Source: Candidatus Bathyarchaeia archaeon (GTDB taxonomy: Archaea > Asgardarchaeota > Heimdallarchaeia > JABLTI01). Taken from it: DNA of 24,000 nucleotides. The number at the start of each line of letters is the position of its first letter. The stretch's first letter is position 1. The stretch covers positions 10,375 to 34,374 of the forward strand of contig DATKZI010000032.1 of assembly GCA_035528035.1 (NCBI GenBank), written 5' to 3'. Positions 3,103 through 16,658 of this stretch are shown here, one piece after another. The notes below the pieces were generated by a model. That model saw nothing but the letters and a program-made list of their open reading frames with translations, made no database searches and was not told the DNA's origin. The translations under genes and the position numbers were made by a program.

Positions 3103-4698
3103 TTAAGGAATTAACAAATAAGCATTTTCTATAATTGATTTCCCTATCAATGAAGGAATTAATCCTAAAATAATTAATCCTAATGCAACGATCGTCCCAA
3201 TAATTGATGTCATTGATACATCTTGACTTAATCCTCCCGAGATTAAAGTTGAATCCTGATCTGGTTTATCAAATAAAAGATACTTGATGACAACGAGATA
3301 ACTGATAAGCATCAGTACTAGGATAAAGATAATTATTATTGTGTAACTGATATAATTCAATTGGATCAATGTAAATAGTAGCATATAGAGATTAACTCCA
3401 CCAAACATAGGTAATAAACCAATCATTGAAGCTAATCCGACAATTAGATTAAATGTTGTTAATGGATATTCTCTTCCCACACCACGAAGATCGATTAGTT
3501 TTTCACTTCTATTCCTTTTAATCATCAAATTATCTTTAGCAATAAAAGCAAGAAATGATGTTATACCTATGTTGATTATCTGTAAAATACTATAACCAAA
3601 GCATTCCTTAACTGAAAAGAGTGTTTCCTCGGTTCCTGAGTTAACCATTCCACCTATAGATATTCCAGTTAAAATCACACCAATATTTACAAAGATTGTA
3701 TAGATGATAATTTTTGATAAAGTAATATTCTCTTTATCTTTTCGAGTTACCTGATAGACAAGAACAAGAACTCCTTCTAAAGCTGTCATTAGTCCAATTA
3801 TCGCTAAAATTAATGGATAATTAATTATCGTCATTTGTGTTGTATCAAAGAATGAAAATAATACCTTGAAGATTGACAACAATGCTAAACCACTAACTAT
3901 TCCCACTGAGAATACTTGTGTACTAGCACTTGATTTTTCTATTGCATTTGGCATCCAAAGATTCAGCATGAAAATATTTGCAAGTAGACCAAATCCTACA
4001 ATAGTTAGTGCTATTATTAAATAGATAATTGCTTTTGCATCTGTAGTGATTCGTTCTGAATTCAATAAAACAACGTCATCATGAATATAATCATAATTTA
4101 GTGTGCCAAATAAACCATAACATAATATTACTGCAGTTAATATGAATACTACACTCAAACTAATCAAAATAAAAGCTCGCATTCCACCTTCTCTAAGATC
4201 CTCTTGACGTTTCTGAAATGCAATTAATGTTATAAGAGATATCCCAATTATTATCCAGCCAAGTAGTGTTGTAAAGAAATCATTTGCTAAAACACTGGCA
4301 TTAATTCCTGTAACTAAGAAGAGTATTAGTCCGATATAAATAGGTCCTTCAGCTTTACCTCTTTGCTTGACGGATTCATAGAAGAGTATTAACACAACAA
4401 TTATGTTTAGCACTAGAAGGAAGATACTGGTAAAACCATCCACTTTAAATTGAACGCCACTAGGAGCACTAAATTCTGCCCCTAAAACAGTTTTATAGAA
4501 TCCAAACAAAGCACCAGAGCCATTTTTAATTCGATAATACAAAGCAGCCAATATCATAATATTAGCGATAATACCCCCAGCAGCTATTTCTCCTGAAAAT
4601 CCTTTCAACCATTTCTTTAATCCAATAATGAATATAGCCATTATGAATGGTAGAAATATTGTTGATAAGATTAGAAAGTTAACAGAAATTTCTGCCAT
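3103..4698 (-). CDS. Antiporter-like polytopic membrane subunit, MrpD/NuoM/NuoN family, highly divergent
   Basis: ORF track 3103..4761 (552 aa), TM-rich throughout. NLWMPNAIEKSSASTQVF aligns to the W-L-P-D-A..PT..S core of proton-conducting membrane transporter subunits. I prefer the ATG at 4698 (MAEISVNF...) because it forms a TAATG stop/start overlap with the upstream gene. The longer ORF would overlap that gene by 64 nt. Confidence 0.75.
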   Translation of the reverse strand: MAEISVNFLILSTIFLPFIMAIFIIGLKKWLKGFSGEIAAGGIIANIMILAALYYRIKNGSGALFGFYKTVLGAEFSAPSGVQFKVDGFTSIFLLVLNIIVVLILFYESVKQRGKAEGPIYIGLILFLVTGINASVLANDFFTTLLGWIIIGISLITLIAFQKRQEDLREGGMRAFILISLSVVFILTAVILCYGLFGTLNYDYIHDDVVLLNSERITTDAKAIIYLIIALTIVGFGLLANIFMLNLWMPNAIEKSSASTQVFSVGIVSGLALLSIFKVLFSFFDTTQMTIINYPLILAIIGLMTALEGVLVLVYQVTRKDKENITLSKIIIYTIFVNIGVILTGISIGGMVNSGTEETLFSVKECFGYSILQIINIGITSFLAFIAKDNLMIKRNRSEKLIDLRGVGREYPLTTFNLIVGLASMIGLLPMFGGVNLYMLLFTLIQLNYISYTIIIIFILVLMLISYLVVIKYLLFDKPDQDSTLISGGLSQDVSMTSIIGTIVALGLIILGLIPSLIGKSIIENAYLLIP

Positions 4699-6617
4699 TA
4701 AATTGAACCTCCCATTATTAGGAATATACATATTAATAATACCACTGAGAGAACTGCCCAAATAATACTACCAAAAGGTGCCTTAATCCGAGTCCAAGAG
4801 AAGAATCGTCCTAAATAGTCAATTGGTCTAAAGATCAATAGCTCATAAATTTTATCCAAATATAGACCGTTTACAAAGAATTTCTTAAAGGGCAAAATAA
4901 ATTTACTGTTCTTAAATTTGAATAGAATATTTCCTTCCCCATCTCGATAAATAAAATAACCTGCAAGAAATGCTGATATAGATGTCAGTAAAATAATAGG
5001 GGATGAAATAAAATTAGCAGTAAAGGGTGAATCATAATTTAAGGTGAAAATTCGTCCAAGCAATCCTGAAAATAGAAATGGTTTGGGATAACCTATGAGA
5101 ATGAGAACCAGACCAGATAACATCGACCAACCTAAAGCTGCTCCCGTTGAGATAAGAGAAAGTGATTTCAAAGGTCTGGTAGAATAATCCTCAACCATTT
5201 CTCCATAAAATATCTGCATATAAACTTTCATTATAGCAAAAATAACAAACATAGAGCAAATTATTGTTAAAATATAAAGTCCCCAATGTGTAGGAATATT
5301 ACTTGTACGTAATGCTTCAAATATCATATCTTTTGAAAAATACATACTTGATGGGAAGATTCCTGCAAAACTTGCTATGGAGAAAACACCAAATAAATGT
5401 AAAAGAGGGTGTTTGTCTTTTATACCATTAACTCGAGAGATGTCTTTAATTCGCAAGGATTCAATGACTGATCCAAAAACAAGAGCTAGAGCTATTACCG
5501 TCGGTGCACCTGCTATAATTTGAAAAATAGTTCCAACAAGTCCAATTGTAGTGTTGGAGCTAAAACTCAATAAAGCTAGACTAAGTTGTGCAATTCCTGC
5601 ACCAATTGTTACTCGATTAATGTTTTTAGCAACTAATATGAAGCCCACAACTACAACTAACGAAAGTATAGCTATCCAACCAATCAACATAAATGGAGCA
5701 GAATGATATAGCTCAATATTTGTACCTTCTTCTAACCCCTTGCGCGAAAATAATGGATAAAAAGTACATAGAAGAAATAAGCCTATATTTCCCACTGTAA
5801 CTGAAATTAAGCTGGATGAGATTGGGAGTGGTGCTTTAGAAATATCATAATCCGATTTTTGACCACCTATAGGCCATAAAAGAAAAGGTATTTGAGCTGA
5901 TTTAATTAGAGCACCTATTGCAATAAATAACTTGATTAGCAATCTTGTAGTCCTACTTGAGTCACCAATAATCCTTATCGGTTGTTGGGACCAAACATTG
6001 ATAATATTACTAATTACTGGTGTTTTGAATGCTACAAGAATAAAGCTGAATCCAATTAGAAGGAATATATCGCCAATTACACTCATGATCAAATATCTTA
6101 TTGCTGCTTTTCCTGCTTTGTCTCCTTCTTCACCCGATTTCTTATACCAGTGTGAAATAAGGAAAAATGCTCCAATAGCTGCAACTTCGATTCCTCCAAA
6201 CATCCAAAACAAGTTATTAGAGAAGATTATCATCATCATTGCTGAAACTGTTAATTGAAAGAAGAACCAATATCGTGTGCGATTTCGATCATAACTCATA
6301 TAGGATATTGAGTATAATGCTAATAGAGCTGAAAGACATATGATAGCACATGCTAAAACAATTGAGACTTCATTGATACGTAAACCAATAACTATCCCTG
6401 GCAACCAACTTACAGAATAAGTGGCTGGAACGTGAAGATACTTGAATAATATAAATGAGACTATTATTGATGGAAGGAAGATCAATATAAATATCAACCA
6501 ATCTCGAGTCTTACCTTCTGCTGCAACAGCATCTTCAAGTCTTCCAAAGAAAATCCCTAAAAGTGTACCTACTGCAGGAATAATAATCAACAGTGCTGCT
6601 AATAATAAACCACTCAT
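4698..6617 (-). CDS. MrpA/NuoL-like antiporter-type membrane subunit
   Basis: 639 aa. It has a NuoL-type N-terminal region (YMSYDRNRTRYWFFFQL). FGGIEVAAIGAFFLISHW matches GWE.vGl.SylLI. IKSAQIPFLLWP matches KSAQ.P...WLP. FSKDMIFEAL matches F.SKD.I. C-terminal GLYLDKIYELLIFRPIDYLGRFF plus a final TM resembles the NuoL/MrpA lateral-helix segment. ATGA overlap with the upstream gene at 6614-6617. Confidence 0.85.
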   Translation of the reverse strand: MSGLLLAALLIIIPAVGTLLGIFFGRLEDAVAAEGKTRDWLIFILIFLPSIIVSFILFKYLHVPATYSVSWLPGIVIGLRINEVSIVLACAIICLSALLALYSISYMSYDRNRTRYWFFFQLTVSAMMMIIFSNNLFWMFGGIEVAAIGAFFLISHWYKKSGEEGDKAGKAAIRYLIMSVIGDIFLLIGFSFILVAFKTPVISNIINVWSQQPIRIIGDSSRTTRLLIKLFIAIGALIKSAQIPFLLWPIGGQKSDYDISKAPLPISSSLISVTVGNIGLFLLCTFYPLFSRKGLEEGTNIELYHSAPFMLIGWIAILSLVVVVGFILVAKNINRVTIGAGIAQLSLALLSFSSNTTIGLVGTIFQIIAGAPTVIALALVFGSVIESLRIKDISRVNGIKDKHPLLHLFGVFSIASFAGIFPSSMYFSKDMIFEALRTSNIPTHWGLYILTIICSMFVIFAIMKVYMQIFYGEMVEDYSTRPLKSLSLISTGAALGWSMLSGLVLILIGYPKPFLFSGLLGRIFTLNYDSPFTANFISSPIILLTSISAFLAGYFIYRDGEGNILFKFKNSKFILPFKKFFVNGLYLDKIYELLIFRPIDYLGRFFSWTRIKAPFGSIIWAVLSVVLLICIFLIMGGSI

Positions 6618-7027
6618 ACTATTTCCACTCCTTTATCATCTTTTTGAGTTTCTTCTTTTTCAGATGTAGAAGTTACTTCTTCTTGAGGTTTTTTAATTAA
6701 CCCCTCAAACTCGAAGTTGAAATCTAATATTGTAGAATCACCACTCTGTTTTAATTGTCTTTCAATGGATGTTCCTACAATCAGAAAAACTAATCCAATT
6801 ACTACAATAAATATTGATAGTGTGTGTGCTAAAGGTGAAGGGTAGAGTGTAGAACCTTCATTTCCTAATCCAAAAGAGAGTAATAATAAATTTGCTGCCA
6901 TCAGTAATATCTCTATACTAAATATGACACGAAGAAAATGTTTGCTTGTAATTAACCCATAAATACCTATACCAAATAATGTTATAACAGCTATTAATGT
7001 ATAAGGAAAAAGCGTAGACCAATCCAT
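6614..7027 (-). CDS. MrpC/NuoK-like small membrane subunit with acidic C-terminal tail
   Basis: 137 aa with three predicted TM segments. FSIEILLMAANLLLLSFG resembles the NuoK/MbhG TM2 with its Glu. YPSPLAHTLSIFIVVIGLVFLIVG aligns to MrpC dPLPQALiLTAIVI.f. The tail is acidic (KKPQEEVTSTSEKEETQKDDKGVEIV). TAATG overlap with the upstream gene at 7027. Confidence 0.7.
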   Translation of the reverse strand: MDWSTLFPYTLIAVITLFGIGIYGLITSKHFLRVIFSIEILLMAANLLLLSFGLGNEGSTLYPSPLAHTLSIFIVVIGLVFLIVGTSIERQLKQSGDSTILDFNFEFEGLIKKPQEEVTSTSEKEETQKDDKGVEIV

Positions 7028-7362
7028 TAATAGCTTCTCCTCCTTTGTTCCTGCATTGGTTTTGAAATCATATGTTTATACCCTACAAAATAATATGCTG
7101 AAATTACTCCCAATAGAACAATTATAAAAATCAATAATAAATCTAAAACTCTAAAAGTCCAAAGATATTTACCAATTTGCTTTACTAAAATAACAAAATT
7201 AAAACTTTCTGGTGTCGCTCCTCCTGAATGGAATAAACTCGAATCTAAATCAAGTAATGATATTGTAATGATTAATACAAATAATCCTGAAACAATTAAT
7301 CCTATACCTCGGACAAACCATTGATTTGTTCTTCGCTTAGTTTCATCACTCATTTTAAACAC
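7027..7362 (-). CDS. Small membrane protein, possibly MnhB-domain (MrpB/MbhE)-like
   Basis: 111 aa, 2-3 TM. WTFRVLDLLLIFIIVLLGV loosely matches the yRg.DTlgE..Vl motif of MnhB-domain proteins (R and D kept, Glu position is Ile). Its position immediately upstream of the MrpC-like gene matches Mrp/Mbh gene order. The assignment is tentative. Confidence 0.4.
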   Translation of the reverse strand: MFKMSDETKRRTNQWFVRGIGLIVSGLFVLIITISLLDLDSSLFHSGGATPESFNFVILVKQIGKYLWTFRVLDLLLIFIIVLLGVISAYYFVGYKHMISKPMQEQRRRSY

Positions 7363-7368
7363 CCTTGA

Positions 7369-7791
7369 TTATATTTCCCTTAAATCTCTTTGAACTGTGC
7401 GTTTAGATCTTACCTTTGCTCGGTCGATTAGCATCAAACTAAAGAATATTAGAATGACTACGAAGAGGATAAATGGCCATATATCTCTTAACGATAAGTT
7501 ATTCTTAAATCCAAAAAATGATACCATAAGAAAAATTGCACACACGCTGAAACTAATGATATAAACTGTATACAGATATAAATCATTTAGATGTTTACCA
7601 GTAGTTTTTACTTTAGTTATTGGTTCTTTAGTATCCTCAAATGTTTGGGATTGAGTTTCATTTGTTGGTTCCATCTTTTCTGTATCCTTATCCTTCTCTA
7701 TAACAGAGAAAAGGGTCATTAAGATAAATATTATTATCCCAAATAAAGCTAGAAATGTTCCCAATACCTTAATAGTCAATCCAATGAACAT
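7369..7791 (-). CDS. Membrane protein of unknown family; first gene of the coupled membrane-subunit block
   Basis: 140 aa, ATG start. An N-terminal TM is followed by a ~45-aa acidic/Thr-rich loop (EKDKDTEKMEPTNETQSQTFEDTKEPITKVKTTGK), 2-3 more TM segments and a basic tail. It is 6 nt from the next gene and 56 nt downstream of the 896-aa gene. No MrpE/F/G motif recognised. Confidence 0.5.
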   Translation of the reverse strand: MFIGLTIKVLGTFLALFGIIIFILMTLFSVIEKDKDTEKMEPTNETQSQTFEDTKEPITKVKTTGKHLNDLYLYTVYIISFSVCAIFLMVSFFGFKNNLSLRDIWPFILFVVILIFFSLMLIDRAKVRSKRTVQRDLREI

Positions 7792-7847
7792 ATTTACCCA
7801 ACTATTATAGCTCTATATCAAGCATAAAAGCTTTTATTATTTATATT

Positions 7848-10538
7848 CTAATTGGTTATTTTCGTGAAAGATAATTGACTACAAATTTGATTATATGTTT
7901 GTAGTAATAAATATTGTAGGTTTGATATTCCACCATGTATTTTTTTACCCATCTTATTTATTGTTATTAAACCAGGTTCAATTGTTTGATATGCTCTTCT
8001 AAAGGCATCTGAAATTATTAGTTCTGTTAAACTATTAATTTGTTGGTTTTCAAACGTCAGATAGGAATATACTCGACCTATTATCACTGGTTTTTCTTCT
8101 TCTGAAATAATGAAAAACTTTGATATTTCTTCTGAAATTATAGGAGGTTGAATTGGCGAGAAACTGGACAAATAATTTTTCTCATCGTCTGGTTTTGATA
8201 GATGTATTGTTGTGAAAAGTCTCAATGGTTTATTTAGGAGTAATCTATCACCTATTAAATTATATAATTCGTCTTTGAAATAATAACAAGATTTCATAAA
8301 TTGATACCTCTCAATATCACTATTGGGCAAGCTTTCTAATCTCTTATTAATTTCATCATTAACTCCTGATCGTAAAAATCTTGTAATGATATTTTCATGA
8401 ATCGGGAGATTTTCTATGTCAGTAATTTCCAAACCCAAACGAAAAACTGTATCAATTACTTGATCAAAATCAAGATTCCATTTTCTAAAGTTAGTAAATA
8501 TATCCCGAACTTCTTTGCTATATTCTGAATCCTTTTGAGGTAGTGGAACCGTTAAAAGTTGCATTGAAGTGATGTTTGTTGTTAATCCTTTAAAATTAAC
8601 AGATGTTGCTTCTGAAATTAAATCTAATTCTTTTTCCGAGAGGTTTTTGTTAGCATTCTTTAATTCATCAATTAATTTTCTAGTATATGGTACACTGATA
8701 TCTTGTATTCTCCCAAGGAATCCTGATACAAGGTATGCTTTCTTATTTTCACTAGTAATTCTGCCTTCCACTGCATCTGTTTCAATTTGAGTTACAATAT
8801 TAATTATACGTTCAGATGTCTTTCTAAATTGTTCATTCACATGTTCTACATCTATCGTTAATTTTCTTTCGGGGGTATATTCAATATTCGAATCAGGATC
8901 GAAAATTTTCAACTTTGCCTCAATATCATCAATAATCCTACTGAGCTGACCAATTAACCATGTTCTTGGACTAGAAAATGCTTGTATTATATCGAAAATT
9001 AATCCCATTTCAATTGTTAAGGATTCTGAAATATTGTAAAAAAACATTCCATCATTTGATATAACGGGAAGATTTTTCTTATCAATTGAAATGTTACCAT
9101 ATAGATAATCATGAATCCAGCTATAAATTCTACTTATGGCTCGTATTAAAGACTGGTTTTTTGTGATATTACTTTCTGGAGTTGCTGAAGGTAAATTGAT
9201 ATTTATTTTTTTAATTTCCTGATTTTCGGTAGTGATTACCTCTTTATCTTCAATAGGAGATTTCATGTATGTTGGTATACTGGGAGCGGTATTAGCTTTT
9301 CCTTTGGAAGATTTTTTAGGTGATAGGATTTCCTTTTGAGATTTCAAATCATCAAGATTTAGTGGTTTAGAAAGAGCTGTATTGATTATGTTCACAAATT
9401 GATTGAGATAACTTTTTGGGACGATTGTTGATTTAATATCAATAATGGCAGATAAGAATTCTTTTGCTAAATCAAAATCAATTAATAATTTAACAAATTG
9501 CTTCAAGTAAGTTTGTTCAAATGGATGATCACCTAATTCTAATAGAAAATATTTAACAAATTGCCAACCAATTAATTTTTCATTGCCATGTTTCAATTGT
9601 GAAATATTCTGTGAAATACTTCGTAAACTAATTCCAGAAGGACCTCGAATTGGTAAAAGATTGCAAACAAAATTCTCGAAAACTTTTGGTAATTCATTTT
9701 CATAAAAAATTTCTATGCGTTTTATGATATCATCAGAATAGAGTATTAAAGGCATTAAACCTGCCTTTAGAATATAATTGAACAAAGAAGCTGAAACTTG
9801 ATTTTTAAATTCTAATGTTTTTAGATCATTAGTAAATTTCTCTTTAATTACTTGGACATAATTCCAATATTCTTTTTTCCCAAAGAAATTGATAAAATCA
9901 AATGTTGGAAAATAGTCCGGGTAATATTGTTGTTCGATCCATTGAGAAAATTCACGTATTTGATATTCCAATAAAGAATCATTAAAGGTTAAAATAGTAA
10001 ATTTATCTTTTTCTTGTATGAAATTTGTATTTTCGTAAAACAGAGATTTCTTTGATCTTTTGCGATAATCGTTAATGGCATCAGCTAAAATTTGAATAGT
10101 TTCTTGATAAGAAGGAATATAACCTTCAATATTTCCTTTTATTAATTTCTTCGCTAAATGACTTCTTTGACAGATTATAACCATAATAGAATAACATAAT
10201 TCGCTTAAAGCTAACTCTTGTTCTCTAGATAATTCACCCTCTCGAACAATTATAGCAACACGCATTTGAGCACCATGTTTAATTTCAGGACCTATTAAAC
10301 CTAAAATATCATTCATTTGTGTTAAATGGCGAATGTATACATGAGCATTATAGAGCTCCGAATGTCGAAGTTCTCCTTGTTTTAATAATTCCTGAAACAT
10401 ATTTGACATGCCTGTAAGGGCGCCACTTAGTAATGTTGCATCAGAATCATCACCTTGAAAAACCCCTGCAGTAATAAAAGGAACGGACCCAGTCATAACT
10501 ACTAAATCGATTTTTTTAGCGATTATTTCTGTGCCCAT
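7848..10538 (-). CDS. Large (~896 aa) soluble protein of unknown function; N-terminal alpha/beta domain with a longin/roadblock-like secondary-structure pattern (tentative)
   Basis: ORF track 7848..10547 begins at a GTG. The ATG at 10538 (MGTEIIAKK...) is preceded by GGTGA with 5-nt spacing, so I prefer it. The first ~130 aa read as beta-beta-alpha-beta-beta-beta-alpha (LVVMTG / PFITAGV / ATLLSGALTGMSNMFQELL / LRHSELY / HVYIRHL / RVAIIVRE / EQELALSELCYSIMVII). A central Lys/Ser/Pro/Thr-rich linker (SPKKSSKGKANTAPSIPTYMKSPIEDKE) follows. The rest is Asn/Ile/Lys-rich and probably helical, with no catalytic motif recognised. Confidence 0.7.
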   Translation of the reverse strand: MGTEIIAKKIDLVVMTGSVPFITAGVFQGDDSDATLLSGALTGMSNMFQELLKQGELRHSELYNAHVYIRHLTQMNDILGLIGPEIKHGAQMRVAIIVREGELSREQELALSELCYSIMVIICQRSHLAKKLIKGNIEGYIPSYQETIQILADAINDYRKRSKKSLFYENTNFIQEKDKFTILTFNDSLLEYQIREFSQWIEQQYYPDYFPTFDFINFFGKKEYWNYVQVIKEKFTNDLKTLEFKNQVSASLFNYILKAGLMPLILYSDDIIKRIEIFYENELPKVFENFVCNLLPIRGPSGISLRSISQNISQLKHGNEKLIGWQFVKYFLLELGDHPFEQTYLKQFVKLLIDFDLAKEFLSAIIDIKSTIVPKSYLNQFVNIINTALSKPLNLDDLKSQKEILSPKKSSKGKANTAPSIPTYMKSPIEDKEVITTENQEIKKININLPSATPESNITKNQSLIRAISRIYSWIHDYLYGNISIDKKNLPVISNDGMFFYNISESLTIEMGLIFDIIQAFSSPRTWLIGQLSRIIDDIEAKLKIFDPDSNIEYTPERKLTIDVEHVNEQFRKTSERIINIVTQIETDAVEGRITSENKKAYLVSGFLGRIQDISVPYTRKLIDELKNANKNLSEKELDLISEATSVNFKGLTTNITSMQLLTVPLPQKDSEYSKEVRDIFTNFRKWNLDFDQVIDTVFRLGLEITDIENLPIHENIITRFLRSGVNDEINKRLESLPNSDIERYQFMKSCYYFKDELYNLIGDRLLLNKPLRLFTTIHLSKPDDEKNYLSSFSPIQPPIISEEISKFFIISEEEKPVIIGRVYSYLTFENQQINSLTELIISDAFRRAYQTIEPGLITINKMGKKIHGGISNLQYLLLQTYNQICSQLSFTKITN

Positions 10539-10742
10539 ATATTTCACCTAATATAATTATATTAACAACAAATACTTTTTAGATAGCTAAAAAAATCTTT
10601 CCTTGATATCTTGGAAAAAAATAAACTGTGAATCAATTATTTTTTTCACGGGGTTTTTATAAGTAAAAACACATTTGATTAAATTTCAAAATCACTAAAT
10701 GAAAATAAAAATAGAAAAAAAAGTATAGAAAAACATCAAAAA

Positions 10743-11474
10743 CTAGATTTGATGCATCCATAACAAACTTCTATAAACACCGATAATTCTATCTTTAAGC
10801 TCTTGGGCTGCTTTTGCTTCATTAAATTTCTCTAAACCTTTGAGGACTTTTCGACAATAATCACATTCTTCACCATTAATGACTCTTTTTTCATCGATTT
10901 CTAAAAAGACTTCTGATTCATAATAGTCCTTTAAGTTTGGAGCAATACCAATGATATCATAATCTCGAGGATCAACAAAAGTCTCAGTATACCAGCTTAT
11001 TCGTAAATCCTTTTTGTGAACAAAAAGTTTTAGCGTGGCAATAGCTATTTCCATGAGGGCTAAATCACCTACAACTATAACAGTTTTACCTGTCATAATG
11101 GGTTTCATAACATATTCTAAGTTCCCACCAAATGTTTTGAGCATTAAGGTGATGCTAGCTCTTGCTTCTGGTCTTGGTGTCCCAGCAGCTGCTGATGCTG
11201 TACTGGATGCTGATGCTTGATATGTTGTTTCAGCAGCTGATCTCGCAGCAACTTCTTCTCTGCTTGTTCTTGCAATGGTTGATGCTCGATGCTGTCGTAA
11301 TGCAAGATTTTTATCAAGAAGAAGAGTAATAACATGATCATCATGTAGAAAAGATACTTGCCATAACCCACCGACTTGTGTCTTCAAATCATCTACATAA
11401 ATTGGTATAGTTATATCCTTATCACAGCCTTTACATGTGAGAGATACTTCTTTTAATGGTACCCTAGCGGACAA
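10743..11474 (-). CDS. Hypothetical two-domain protein with Ala/Ser/Thr-rich linker
   Basis: 243 aa. TTG start preceded by GGAG about 10 nt upstream, and no in-frame ATG before residue ~110. The N-terminal beta-rich part carries CKGC. The locally GC-rich linker reads ARSAAETTYQASASSTASAAAGTPRPEARA. The C-terminal alpha/beta part contains GKTVIVVGDLALMEIAIATLKLF...DIIGIAPNL and a late CDYC. Confidence 0.6.
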   Translation of the reverse strand: MSARVPLKEVSLTCKGCDKDITIPIYVDDLKTQVGGLWQVSFLHDDHVITLLLDKNLALRQHRASTIARTSREEVAARSAAETTYQASASSTASAAAGTPRPEARASITLMLKTFGGNLEYVMKPIMTGKTVIVVGDLALMEIAIATLKLFVHKKDLRISWYTETFVDPRDYDIIGIAPNLKDYYESEVFLEIDEKRVINGEECDYCRKVLKGLEKFNEAKAAQELKDRIIGVYRSLLWMHQI

Positions 11475-11686: not shown

Positions 11687-13390
11687 TTAAATCAAAAAAG
11701 CTATTAGTATAAAGATTATTCCAAAATAGAATGATACAGTCATAGCTAATGGAAGCAATCTTTTACTTCGAAGTACTATTCTTGGAAGATCTTTAAACTT
11801 GTATGGAAATTTCCTCACTTCCCGTAAAGAGAAAAAGGGAATAGATGTTGCAACTCTACCTATAAATCCTACAGCTAATGCTATTGTAATAGCACGATAT
11901 TGAGAATATCCTGGAGAAAATCCAAAAAAGGAAATATTTCCCATAAGGAAATCCATTAAATAACCACCAAACAATGACCCAAGGAATAATATTATTCCAT
12001 AAAACATATTGTAAAAACCAACATACATGCTTCTTTCTTTTTCAGGAGTAACATCAATCAAATAAGCTTCTAATACAGCAGAATTCAAGCCAAGTGGTAT
12101 ACAAATAACTGCGTGAAGAATTATAATGTGCCAAACTTGAGTTGCAAACATATAACTAAAAGGCATAGCAGCTAAAATTAATCGATTCATAATCATTTGT
12201 GGTTTTCGACCTATAAGGTCAGATACACGACCAGCATAACGTATAGTAGTTAAAGTCGCTGTGCTCATTACTACCGAAAAAATAGCTATCTGTAAAAAAT
12301 CAGCTCCAATATCTGATCTTTGTCTTATAGGAAATAATGGCCAACACATTGACATAAAAAAGGATTGAATTCCAAAGACAATGGTAAATTTCATGAAATT
12401 CTTATTTCTAAGCATTAAGAGGATTCTATTGGATGAAGTGGGAATTTCGTGTGTAGTTTTTGATTTTGTTTTAATTTTTTTATCTACTAAAATCTCTGAA
12501 GAAACACAAACTGTTTTACTTCCTGAATTAGTAATTTGTTGAGGGTCCTTATCACTAGCTAGCACACCTTTGATTACACAAGGTTCTATCACAGTTTTCA
12601 GTTTTTTATTTGCTTTCTTTTGATCTTTCTCATGTAATAAAGCATTTAATTTTTGAGCTCGTTCTTTAGCTTTTTTCTCTTTAAAAGTGAAAATAACAAC
12701 AGCTGAGGCTAAACCAGCTATTAACCCTATTAAAATCGGAAAGAAGTAACTCCTTGGAAAAACCCTGGAACCCAATGAGAATTCTCCGACAATATAATTG
12801 AATAATACTCCTCCTAGAATTGTTGAGAGAATATATGGTAATTGTGAAAACCAATTAAGGTTAGCAATAATTTTCCCCCGAACTTTAGCAGGAGTAATCT
12901 CTCCTAGTAATGCCATCCAAGCAGGAGCACCCATTGAAACAACAAGAGAGATGATTCCAGCGATAACTATGATCATGGTTACATTATTTACAAATAAAAG
13001 TAAAACCCAAATGCTAGAATAGAGAATATTTGATAATGCAACGAAAATTGAGCGTCGTTGAACACGATCAGATAAAAAGCCAAACAATGGTTGAACAAAA
13101 TTACCTAATAAATTTGTAACTGCTCGTAACCAACCCATTTGACCACCAGTAGCTCCTAAATCAACAGCAATGGTAGTTAGAAAAGGATCAACCATTCCAT
13201 AACTAAAAGTCGCTAAAGCAGATCTTCCATAAATTTTCTCTCGATCTGGTATTTTTATTAATTCATCATCAGATAAATCAACTTTGCCAGGAGGTATCTT
13301 TTTTATTTCATCAGTTAATGGAAGAAGAGGAACTGCAGTTATAGGAGCAATAGTTTGTTTTTCAGCTCCCGAAGGTTCATTATCTGGCAA
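11687..13390 (-). CDS. Major facilitator superfamily transporter with long Lys-rich central cytoplasmic loop
   Basis: 567 aa, about 12 TM. MFS motif A-like GFLSDRVQRRS lies after TM2. A central loop of ~100 aa separates the two halves (KEKKAKERAQKLNALLHEKDQKKANKK...). The TTG start at 13390 is preceded by AGGTG with 8-nt spacing. Confidence 0.8.
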   Translation of the reverse strand: MPDNEPSGAEKQTIAPITAVPLLPLTDEIKKIPPGKVDLSDDELIKIPDREKIYGRSALATFSYGMVDPFLTTIAVDLGATGGQMGWLRAVTNLLGNFVQPLFGFLSDRVQRRSIFVALSNILYSSIWVLLLFVNNVTMIIVIAGIISLVVSMGAPAWMALLGEITPAKVRGKIIANLNWFSQLPYILSTILGGVLFNYIVGEFSLGSRVFPRSYFFPILIGLIAGLASAVVIFTFKEKKAKERAQKLNALLHEKDQKKANKKLKTVIEPCVIKGVLASDKDPQQITNSGSKTVCVSSEILVDKKIKTKSKTTHEIPTSSNRILLMLRNKNFMKFTIVFGIQSFFMSMCWPLFPIRQRSDIGADFLQIAIFSVVMSTATLTTIRYAGRVSDLIGRKPQMIMNRLILAAMPFSYMFATQVWHIIILHAVICIPLGLNSAVLEAYLIDVTPEKERSMYVGFYNMFYGIILFLGSLFGGYLMDFLMGNISFFGFSPGYSQYRAITIALAVGFIGRVATSIPFFSLREVRKFPYKFKDLPRIVLRSKRLLPLAMTVSFYFGIIFILIAFLI

Positions 13391-15872: not shown

Positions 15873-16658
15873 TTATTCTTTTGAGAATTTTACTACCCGA
15901 GTGTTATTTGTTAAAGTAATAATATCATTTCTAGAAATCGGCACTATATTAATGAAATTTAATCGGCTGCAAAATTCTATATCATCAATGTAATTTAAAT
16001 CAATCAATTTTTTACCATGAGCAGTTTGATACAATAGATCGTAAAGCGTAGTAGTTTTTAGTAATTCCTCTAAATAAGCTATTTCTTCAGTAACTTCTTG
16101 AGCTAGAGTAACACCTATATTCTGGAATTCATTTGCTATAATTAATCCACCCAATTGATCTTCTGTAATAGTATTGTTTTGAATATTACCTTCTGAAAAT
16201 GCTGGAATGATTACTACTTTAAGTTGTCTCTCATCTTCTTGAGCTATGTCAATTACTTTTTGTGCGATAACTTTAGCATTAACTATTGAACCAATTAGGA
16301 TATATTTTGCTCCTATTGATTCCACTACCCTCCTTGCTCCAGTAGAGGAAGTAAATGCTGTTGCTGGTTTTGCAAAATTAATTTTAGAACTAACTTCAAC
16401 AGGGCTATTGCCAAAATCAAATCCTTCTAACATCAAGCACCCTCGTTCACCCATAAGGAGAGTGTCAAATTCAACTTTTACTTGGCGTGTATCTTCAACC
16501 TCCTTTGCAACATAGAAGGTGTTTAAACCTTGCCGCATAGCAGTAGGTATTGTTGTGCTTGCTCGTAAAACATCTACGATTATTGCTACACCATTTGTTG
16601 TTTCTGAAGCTAATTTCGATCCTTCATTATTTCCTAAAAGAACCACTTCAATTGACAT
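15873..16658 (-). CDS. comB: 2-phosphosulfolactate phosphatase (ComB) family protein
   Basis: 261 aa. Contains IIVDVLRASTTIPTAM, GERGCLMLEGFDFGNSPVEV and TEDQLGGLIIANEF, which match recalled ComB-family motifs (DvlRaSTti, GERng..i.GFdlgNSP, ED.l.aG). The physiological substrate is not inferable. Confidence 0.75.
   Translation of the reverse strand: MSIEVVLLGNNEGSKLASETTNGVAIIVDVLRASTTIPTAMRQGLNTFYVAKEVEDTRQVKVEFDTLLMGERGCLMLEGFDFGNSPVEVSSKINFAKPATAFTSSTGARRVVESIGAKYILIGSIVNAKVIAQKVIDIAQEDERQLKVVIIPAFSEGNIQNNTITEDQLGGLIIANEFQNIGVTLAQEVTEEIAYLEELLKTTTLYDLLYQTAHGKKLIDLNYIDDIEFCSRLNFINIVPISRNDIITLTNNTRVVKFSKE

Follow-up and report, generated by a model that had tools for sequence, protein, structure and literature searches.

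Eukaryotic membrane traffic is regulated at its core by longin, roadblock and DENN proteins; among the longin-DENN regulators, FLCN-FNIP and C9orf72-SMCR8 are recruited to membranes by membrane scaffolds. Asgard archaea, too, carry many proteins of these three kinds. The 24,000-nucleotide stretch of Heimdallarchaeia DNA analysed here (the window; contig DATKZI010000032.1 of assembly GCA_035528035.1, positions 10,375 to 34,374) encodes a compact, testable set of candidate interactions of this kind, consisting of a predicted longin-headed orphan protein of 896 amino acids (P0001) and a DENN-core-like protein of 243 amino acids (aa) beside a complex-I-like membrane arm. In our reading, to which we assign a probability of about 0.5, P0001 is an accessory, genus-restricted, longin-headed cytoplasmic protein that serves as a non-enzymatic scaffold or adaptor. 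Its head would belong to a known kind, the longin domains of Asgard archaea. What is new is the architecture of the 896-aa protein, along with about 85% of its sequence.

Among described proteins, the head of P0001 is most readily compared with the tri-longin RabGEF subunits (first longin of Fuzzy/Mon1/HPS1, PF19036) and with Bet5 and Trs23 of TRAPP, which it resembles in predicted topology. Longin proteins with the same kind of head occur in the same phylum. Passages of PMC10933270 describe a longin-TRAPPC3/V4R architecture for a Heimdall protein, and passages of PMC12290439 describe folliculin/SMCR8-type longins of Asgard archaea with a GP motif in the β1-β2 loop. The longin topology is defined in PMC10933270 as β1-β2-α1-β3-β4-β5-α2-α3 with nothing helical before β1; a longin is, in the same paper, a roadblock domain minus its N-terminal helix plus an extra C-terminal helix. 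Keyword look-ups in both papers returned no description of an 896-aa architecture of this type or of its position beside a complex-I-like arm.

The gene and the parts of P0001 are listed below; the AlphaFold2 model of the protein, built on a 13-sequence alignment, has a mean predicted local distance difference test score (pLDDT) of 75.

7848..10538, minus strand: open reading frame (ORF) of the 896-aa soluble orphan protein P0001, with 13 full-length orthologues, a ratio of non-synonymous to synonymous substitution rates (dN/dS) indicating selection, and a single copy in its own genome.
10137..10514, minus strand: longin-like domain at the N-terminus, residues ~9-134, where P0001 is most conserved (AlphaFold2 topology, Foldseek, hhalign, dN/dS).
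9345..10109, minus strand: all-α domain, residues ~144-398, pLDDT ~85-94.
9207..9338, minus strand: disordered Lys/Ser/Pro-rich linker, residues ~401-444, of variable length, pLDDT <50, dN/dS 0.3-0.7.
7851..9206, minus strand: C-terminal half, residues ~445-896 (alignment and AlphaFold2).

Structurally, the modelled head consists of strands at about residues 9-16 and 19-26, a helix at 32-53, strands at 65-71 and 92-99, and helices at 105-124 and 126-134, predicted at pLDDT 40-80. This gives a β-β-α-β-β-α-α topology without a helix before β1, in which four of the five longin strands are predicted; the head modelled in isolation reaches a pLDDT of 61. A reading made earlier from the sequence alone (the sequence-only reading) had proposed a β-β-α-β-β-β-α pattern for this region. 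That pattern is recognizable in the low-confidence model, with one strand fewer. Compared to the tri-longin and TRAPP longins, one of the three meander strands is replaced in P0001 by a loop of ~20 aa with a short helix (residues 72-91). Because the head is without an N-terminal helix, fitting the definition given in PMC10933270, longin is favoured over roadblock, the fold that the sequence-only reading had left open beside longin. A roadblock/LC7 domain was rejected, since β1 begins at residue 9 with no preceding helix and P0001 has no Robl_LC7 match.

Fold comparison points in the same direction. Most of the best 50 Foldseek matches of the isolated head are longin or roadblock proteins, and the matches include Fuzzy, AP-2 sigma, Sedlin, a Lamtor subunit, SRX, zeta-COP, MON1A/CCZ1, Sec22b and Lst4. 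Fuzzy (7q3d_C) is the best match of the isolated head, at a probability of 0.89, and also ranks top by probability in the search with the full-length model. Searched as a single sequence against its own genome, the head returned no paralogues; the profile route alone succeeded. A head-only profile run over 400 Asgard genomes gave about 10 weak matches, all on one shared motif, (S/G)G(I/V)P-x-(F/Y) ... LFSG-x-L-x-G-(I/M)-S ... E-x-L-x-x-G-x-(L/I)-R, which sits in the C-terminal domain of polytopic membrane proteins of 335-390 aa and of TPR proteins. The alignment of these matched Asgard domains (A7) pairs with the head at an hhalign probability of 97%, and its hidden Markov model retrieves 24 proteins from the window's own genome (at least 24 family members), with P0001 among them at E = 2.6e-8. 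By profile, the head thus belongs to a domain family of its own genome.

That this family as a whole is of longin type we infer from matches below threshold. In Pfam these are Fuz_longin_1 (three members, the best of which has E = 9e-4 and 19 bits where the cut-off is 26), Intu_longin_1, and Robl_LC7 (one paralogue at E = 0.04-0.085); in the PDB they are TRAPP Bet5 (E = 0.009), Trs23, MON1A and a roadblock protein. One member combines a longin-like domain with V4R, as does the Heimdall longin-TRAPPC3 protein of PMC10933270. As judged by predicted topology, fold search and profiles, the head of P0001 is probably longin-type.

Several results weigh against this assignment. None of the Foldseek matches of the head is significant, the best having E 0.04, with TM-scores of 0.35-0.51 and root-mean-square deviations of 6-10 Å on a model of pLDDT 61. 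The 97% obtained with A7 is inflated, because the A7 sequences were picked by their similarity to the head; a less biased alignment of 20 own-genome members chosen by A7 (A8) gives the lower value of 72% (E = 3.4e-5) over a short span of 40 columns. Neither P0001 nor its 13 orthologues match a curated longin model in Pfam, and hhalign detects no profile similarity between the head and the Asgard folliculin-like longin family. Two further candidates were rejected. A longin of folliculin/SMCR8 type scores 0.3% in hhalign against the Asgard folliculin-like family, and the β1-β2 loop of P0001 reads T-G-S-V-P, with G17-x-x-P20 in the place of GP, and no arginine finger was assigned; the genome encodes a separate folliculin-like longin-DENN protein. 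A DENN module within P0001 does not fit residues 144-398, which are all-α (pLDDT ~90) and not the α/β core of a cDENN domain.

The own-genome longin-like family (24 loci) is without a Pfam model of its own. Examples lie at C52:63842-64999, C5:52066-54084, C8:5652-6923, C13:30339-31214 and C14:216926-222268. The fusion partners of the domain are polytopic membrane domains, TPR arrays, MarR/winged-helix domains, a V4R/TRAPPC3-like domain and a methyltransferase, and it occurs in giant proteins of ~1800 aa.

Beyond the head, P0001 has one longin-like domain where the tri-longin proteins have three, and the ~750 aa that follow are unrelated to them. The all-α domain yields no significant Foldseek match in the PDB or in BFVD. 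The linker lies close to the position that the sequence-only reading had estimated for it (~60 aa at nucleotides (nt) 9140-9360), and in three aligned homologues (P0009, P0010 and P0015) it holds a helical insertion of ~215 aa. In the C-terminal half, a conserved LPKATPES motif is accompanied by a long hairpin of helices (454-545) and by helical bundles; residues 779-889 form a small α/β unit that carries GFLGRxQExSIP and NLTELIISDAFRRAY. PDB profile search, Foldseek and Pfam return no family or fold match for this half. With the full-length model, Foldseek finds nothing significant in the PDB or BFVD, so that the helical body and the C-terminal half stay orphan and ~85% of P0001 (~750 aa) is without a recognizable relative. 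P0001 itself has no matches in Pfam, NCBIfam, PADLOC or PHROGs, Pfam and NCBIfam are likewise empty for 13 family members, and a profile search against PDB sequences returns nothing. The description of P0001 as a soluble orphan without a recognizable enzymatic motif is in agreement with these searches.

The gene itself is well delimited. The minus-strand frame is open over 7848-10547 in an AT-rich window (G+C ~31%), and the ATG at 10538 yields 896 aa. As all orthologues begin with MG(T/M/A)E and AGGTGA lies 7 nt upstream of this ATG, we take 10538 as the translation start. A word-indexed search of 5.8 billion proteins recovered 15 relatives, 49-58% identical along their whole length and all from Heimdall or "Asgard group" bins, and phmmer against 1.84 billion cluster representatives gave 8 matches only, all of the P0001 family. 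The 13 full-length orthologues are 48-58% identical. In the 400 Asgard genomes, the full-length profile places the gene solely in the window's own genus (g1), the sole match outside g1 being spurious, stop-ridden and of 21 bits. In two pairs of close orthologues the whole-gene dN/dS is 0.09-0.10, with 0.02-0.04 over residues 1-180, ~0.1 in the helical parts and 0.3-0.7 in the linker. P0001 is therefore a real gene under purifying selection, with a very narrow family.

Within this family, variants of 1105-1113 aa are found (P0009, P0010, P0015 and P0016; loci L005 and L007). Although its source gives P0015 as Thorarchaeota, it has the Heimdall locus structure, and the label or bin is therefore probably wrong. 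Between P0006 and P0008 (L057 and L003), synonymous divergence is 0.44-0.64 in codons 1-400, only 0.06 from codon 451 to the end, and 0.04-0.16 in the flanking genes; this sharp difference within the gene suggests a recombination breakpoint near the linker.

The minus-strand gene order around P0001 runs from the transporter through the 243-aa gene, the 896-aa ORF and five membrane genes to the DNA polymerase D large subunit. No GTPase gene is found among the window genes.

11687-13390, minus strand: major facilitator superfamily transporter.
10743..11474, minus strand: 243-aa protein with a CxxC N-terminus and a folliculin-type DENN-core-like C-terminal domain, directly upstream of the 896-aa ORF.
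3103..7791, minus strand: five-gene complex-I/Mrp-like membrane module (two weakly NuoJ-like proteins, NuoK, a NuoL-like and a NuoN/MrpD-like protein), downstream of the 896-aa ORF.

Presence and absence were compared over 12 genomes of the family (11 related ones and this one), with the other 71 genomes of the class as the outside set. The NuoL-like orthogroup occurs in all 12 family genomes and is absent from the other 71. The 243-aa gene, likewise not found among the 71 and thus confined to this family (f1), is present in 11 of the 12 (10 of 11 related genomes plus this one), the exception being the incomplete genome G090. The ~900-aa gene was found in just 4 of the 12. Six genomes (G081, G082, G084, G087, G089 and G091) have only 1.3-1.45 kb between the 243-aa gene and the NuoL-like gene, barely room for the three small membrane genes, and in three of these loci the listed ORFs place the start of the module 142-294 nt after the 243-aa gene, so that a ~900-aa gene is absent. 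No remnants of the gene were detected by tblastn in genomes without it. At least six genomes are non-carriers, five from the same genus and G091 from a sister genus.

In the NuoL tree, the non-carriers form two well-supported clades, each sister to carrier lineages, so that three state changes are needed; a tree that gathers the carriers on one side of a branch is rejected by the approximately unbiased (AU) test (p = 0.011). Since the insertion site is identical in all carriers, the simplest history is a single gain with one or more later losses, of which the best tree needs two. It follows from this pattern that the module and the 243-aa gene have been kept repeatedly without a P0001-type protein. 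The P0001-type gene is dispensable for keeping the module and, in our reading, accessory, its product not being a core subunit.

These observations bear directly on the proposal of the sequence-only reading that P0001 fills the slot of a peripheral module on the membrane arm. Six genomes keep the module and the 243-aa gene without a P0001-type gene, the synteny of P0001 with the module is not conserved among relatives, and the proposal is not supported. With the peripheral subunits of complex I, Mrp and Mbh (NuoB/C/D/I, MrpE/F/G), P0001 shares solely its position on the same strand upstream of J/K/L/N-like genes; sequence or fold likeness is absent, and the protein is not required for keeping the module. 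Neither co-occurrence (module 12/12, gene 4/12, spacer too short in 6) nor homology speaks for it as a subunit of the complex-I/Mrp-like module, there being no likeness to a known peripheral or accessory subunit in Pfam, NCBIfam, PDB sequences or Foldseek. A regulatory giant protein obligately coupled to an antiporter-like arm is not supported, while an accessory, non-essential association of P0001 with the module is possible.

The boundary between the 896-aa ORF and the module was examined in an upstream alignment of the first membrane gene, comprising 9 loci with the ~900-aa gene and 6 without it.

7839..7857, minus strand: promoter-like block AACCAATTAG(A/C)(A/T)A(A/T)TA(A/T)A(A/T), ~55 nt before the first membrane gene (alignment of 15 loci).
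7811-7816, minus strand: conserved ATAGAG-like block, at ~-25 from the first membrane ATG (15-locus alignment).
7796-7802, minus strand: GGG-rich Shine-Dalgarno-like site (15-locus alignment).

The stop codon of P0001 (TAG, 7848-7850) and the ATG of the first membrane gene (7791) are separated by a spacer of 56 nt, so that the same-strand position and the distance given by the sequence-only reading are correct. Its observation that the gap holds no hairpin or T-run terminator is also confirmed, and no run of at least five T occurs between the ~900-aa stop and the next ATG in any carrier examined (the window and eight other loci). With no terminator in the gap, read-through into the membrane genes is possible. 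As to an independent promoter at 7792-7847, both arrangements share a conserved promoter-like block that lies partly in this interval and partly immediately upstream of it. Its core, AACCAA(T/A)TAG, is invariant, and a TATA-like (A/T)A(A/T)TA(A/T)A(A/T) comes after it, ~55-58 nt from the ATG. In the window this block shares bases with the end of the 896-aa ORF (its final two codons and the stop). In P0010, P0011 and P0012 the ORF ends a few bases sooner and the block is entirely non-coding, and in P0015 the overlap with the stop codon is limited to the first two bases of the block; the conservation is therefore that of a cis element and not a coding constraint. An archaeal TATA box lies ~25 nt before the start site, and the spacing of the block fits that distance plus a leader of ~20 nt. 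From its conservation and spacing, the block is likely the promoter or operator of the membrane module, and the membrane genes would then not depend on read-through from the 896-aa gene.

The AACCAATTAG block is not enriched genome-wide (13 matches versus 15 for a reversed control). A near-copy (AACCAATTAGGATATATTT) lies on the plus strand at 16290-16308, inside comB and ~600 nt upstream of a HEAT-repeat gene, maybe by chance. A scan for sigma-70-type promoters remained below the shuffled expectation; this model is bacterial and irrelevant for archaea.

It is the 243-aa protein that constantly accompanies the orphan arm, and P0001 is optional. Identity of the 243-aa protein among the family genomes is 75-85%, which makes it much better conserved than the membrane genes, and its gene adjoins the module in every family genome that has both on one contig. 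Its C-terminal domain matches the C-terminal part of a 380-aa paralogue from the same genome (phmmer E = 3e-15), which passes Pfam Folliculin (PF11704), as do several of its orthologues; in total the 243-aa protein has five paralogues in its own genome, one of them passing that model. Because the matched 380-aa paralogue passes PF11704, we describe the neighbour of the arm as a CxxC protein with a folliculin-type DENN-core-like domain. The resulting arrangement, a longin-headed protein encoded beside a DENN-core-like protein and a membrane complex, is reminiscent of FLCN-FNIP and C9orf72-SMCR8 by analogy and not by membership. In contrast to those complexes, the longin and DENN-like parts are on separate genes here, the DENN-like gene occurs in many genomes without a P0001-type gene, and the window holds no GTPase gene.

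A further potential partner of the arm is found at a separate locus of the genome.

Contig C24:23627-26601, outside the window: a row of three genes, coding for a NuoD-like protein, a NuoH-like protein and a membrane protein of 205 aa; no gene close by encodes an antiporter-like subunit.

By eye, the NuoD-like protein has neither of the Cys-bearing terminal motifs typical of [NiFe] large subunits. All 10 related genomes of the genus have its orthogroup, as does this one, and no further genome of the class does; it is not found in the sister genus, although the sister genus keeps the arm. The degenerate NuoD/NuoH-like pair appears to be a more natural partner of the arm than P0001 and is a candidate to act in trans.

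For P0001 as an accessory scaffold or adaptor, we infer the binding partners, the scaffold role and any tie to the membrane module, as well as the promoter functions, as follows. The predicted longin head may bind a small GTPase or another longin, roadblock or DENN protein, as longin and roadblock domains do. The first candidate partner would be the adjacent 243-aa DENN-core-like protein and the second the membrane arm. The helical body could form a platform and, together with the flexible linker, would give reach and extra binding surfaces. The 896-aa transcript may continue into the membrane genes, in which case expression of the two would perhaps be loosely coupled. The P0001-type gene sits between the DENN-core-like gene and the module's own promoter-like element, and its presence has changed, by loss or gain, more than once, with the DENN-core-like gene and the module remaining side by side. 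Three points count against such a role. The term scaffold describes a shape, because ~85% of the protein has no recognizable relative. No feature of the first membrane protein goes along with the presence or absence of the P0001-type gene. Furthermore, the 243-aa protein does not depend on the P0001-type gene, as it is equally conserved with and without it.

An alternative is positional coincidence, in which a lineage-specific structural or coiled-coil protein occupies a permissive spacer and has no functional tie to its neighbours. It draws on the restriction of the orphan to part of one genus, on the clean presence/absence edges within a 140-290-nt spacer, on the equal conservation of the neighbours with or without the gene, and on transcription signals of its own.

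10581..10602, minus strand: B recognition element (BRE)/TATA-like block GGAAAGATTTTTTTAGCTATCT, ~45-60 nt upstream of the 896-aa ORF, the best-conserved intergenic block in 8 loci.
10701..10742, minus strand: oligo-T runs (T5-T8), directly 3' of the stop of the 243-aa gene and archaeal terminator-like.

The upstream block has the consensus GAAAGATTTTATTA in the intergenic alignment of the 8 loci and may act as the promoter of the gene. The T-runs would insulate it from the 243-aa gene, and equivalent T-runs follow the 243-aa gene in G081, G084 and G091, the three non-carrier loci read that far upstream. Coincidence does not sit well, however, with the lack of a terminator between P0001 and the membrane genes, with a longin-type head beside a DENN-core-like protein, which recalls eukaryotic longin-DENN regulators, or with the dN/dS of 0.02-0.04 in the head, which argues for a specific binding partner. 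We regard this explanation as rather unlikely, though worth keeping in view beside the accessory scaffold.

The original idea, that P0001 is a dedicated cytoplasmic peripheral partner of the antiporter-like arm, co-transcribed with it and docked in place of a redox module, is improbable. The 56-nt same-strand gap free of T-run terminators, here and in eight other loci, fits it, as does the occurrence of the gene at exactly this position in all 10 sequenced carrier loci. The evolutionary rate of P0001 is similar to that of the membrane genes, and the closest relatives of the head, being C-terminal domains of polytopic membrane proteins, place it often beside a membrane domain. However, the whole 20-kb neighbourhood is syntenic among the close carrier relatives, so that adjacency by itself carries little weight. 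At least six genomes keep the module and the 243-aa gene without a P0001-type gene or its remnants, and the NuoL tree and AU test indicate that its presence changed more than once. Both arrangements have the promoter-like block ahead of the first membrane gene, the first membrane protein is without a carrier-specific feature, and the NuoD/NuoH-like pair follows the arm across the genus as the more natural partner.

A mobile-element cargo or a defence-type variable gene at a hotspot, suggested by variable presence between conserved genes within one genus and by the mosaic synonymous divergence within the gene, which hints at recombination, is very improbable for a lone gene that is not a system, lies at the same site in every lineage, has identities to relatives whose ranking matches that of the NuoL-like gene, gives no PADLOC, PHROG or viral-fold (BFVD) match, and shows no integrase, flanking repeat or compositional anomaly noticed in the window, where no dedicated repeat search was made.

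The accessory scaffold reading can be extended, at long odds, to a model in which P0001 and the 243-aa protein assemble on the complex-I-like arm, itself completed in trans by the NuoD/NuoH-like pair. The former ion pump would then be an anchor or sensor for a longin/DENN platform, with P0001 as a genus-specific add-on. If true, such a platform would be an archaeal counterpart of the docking of FLCN-FNIP or Ragulator on lysosomal membrane machinery.

Downstream of the module, as noted at loci L001, L002 and L006, the DNA polymerase D large subunit (DP2) of some relatives carries an intein with a LAGLIDADG domain and reaches 1621-1635 aa, while other relatives have an intein-free DP2 of 1164-1167 aa.

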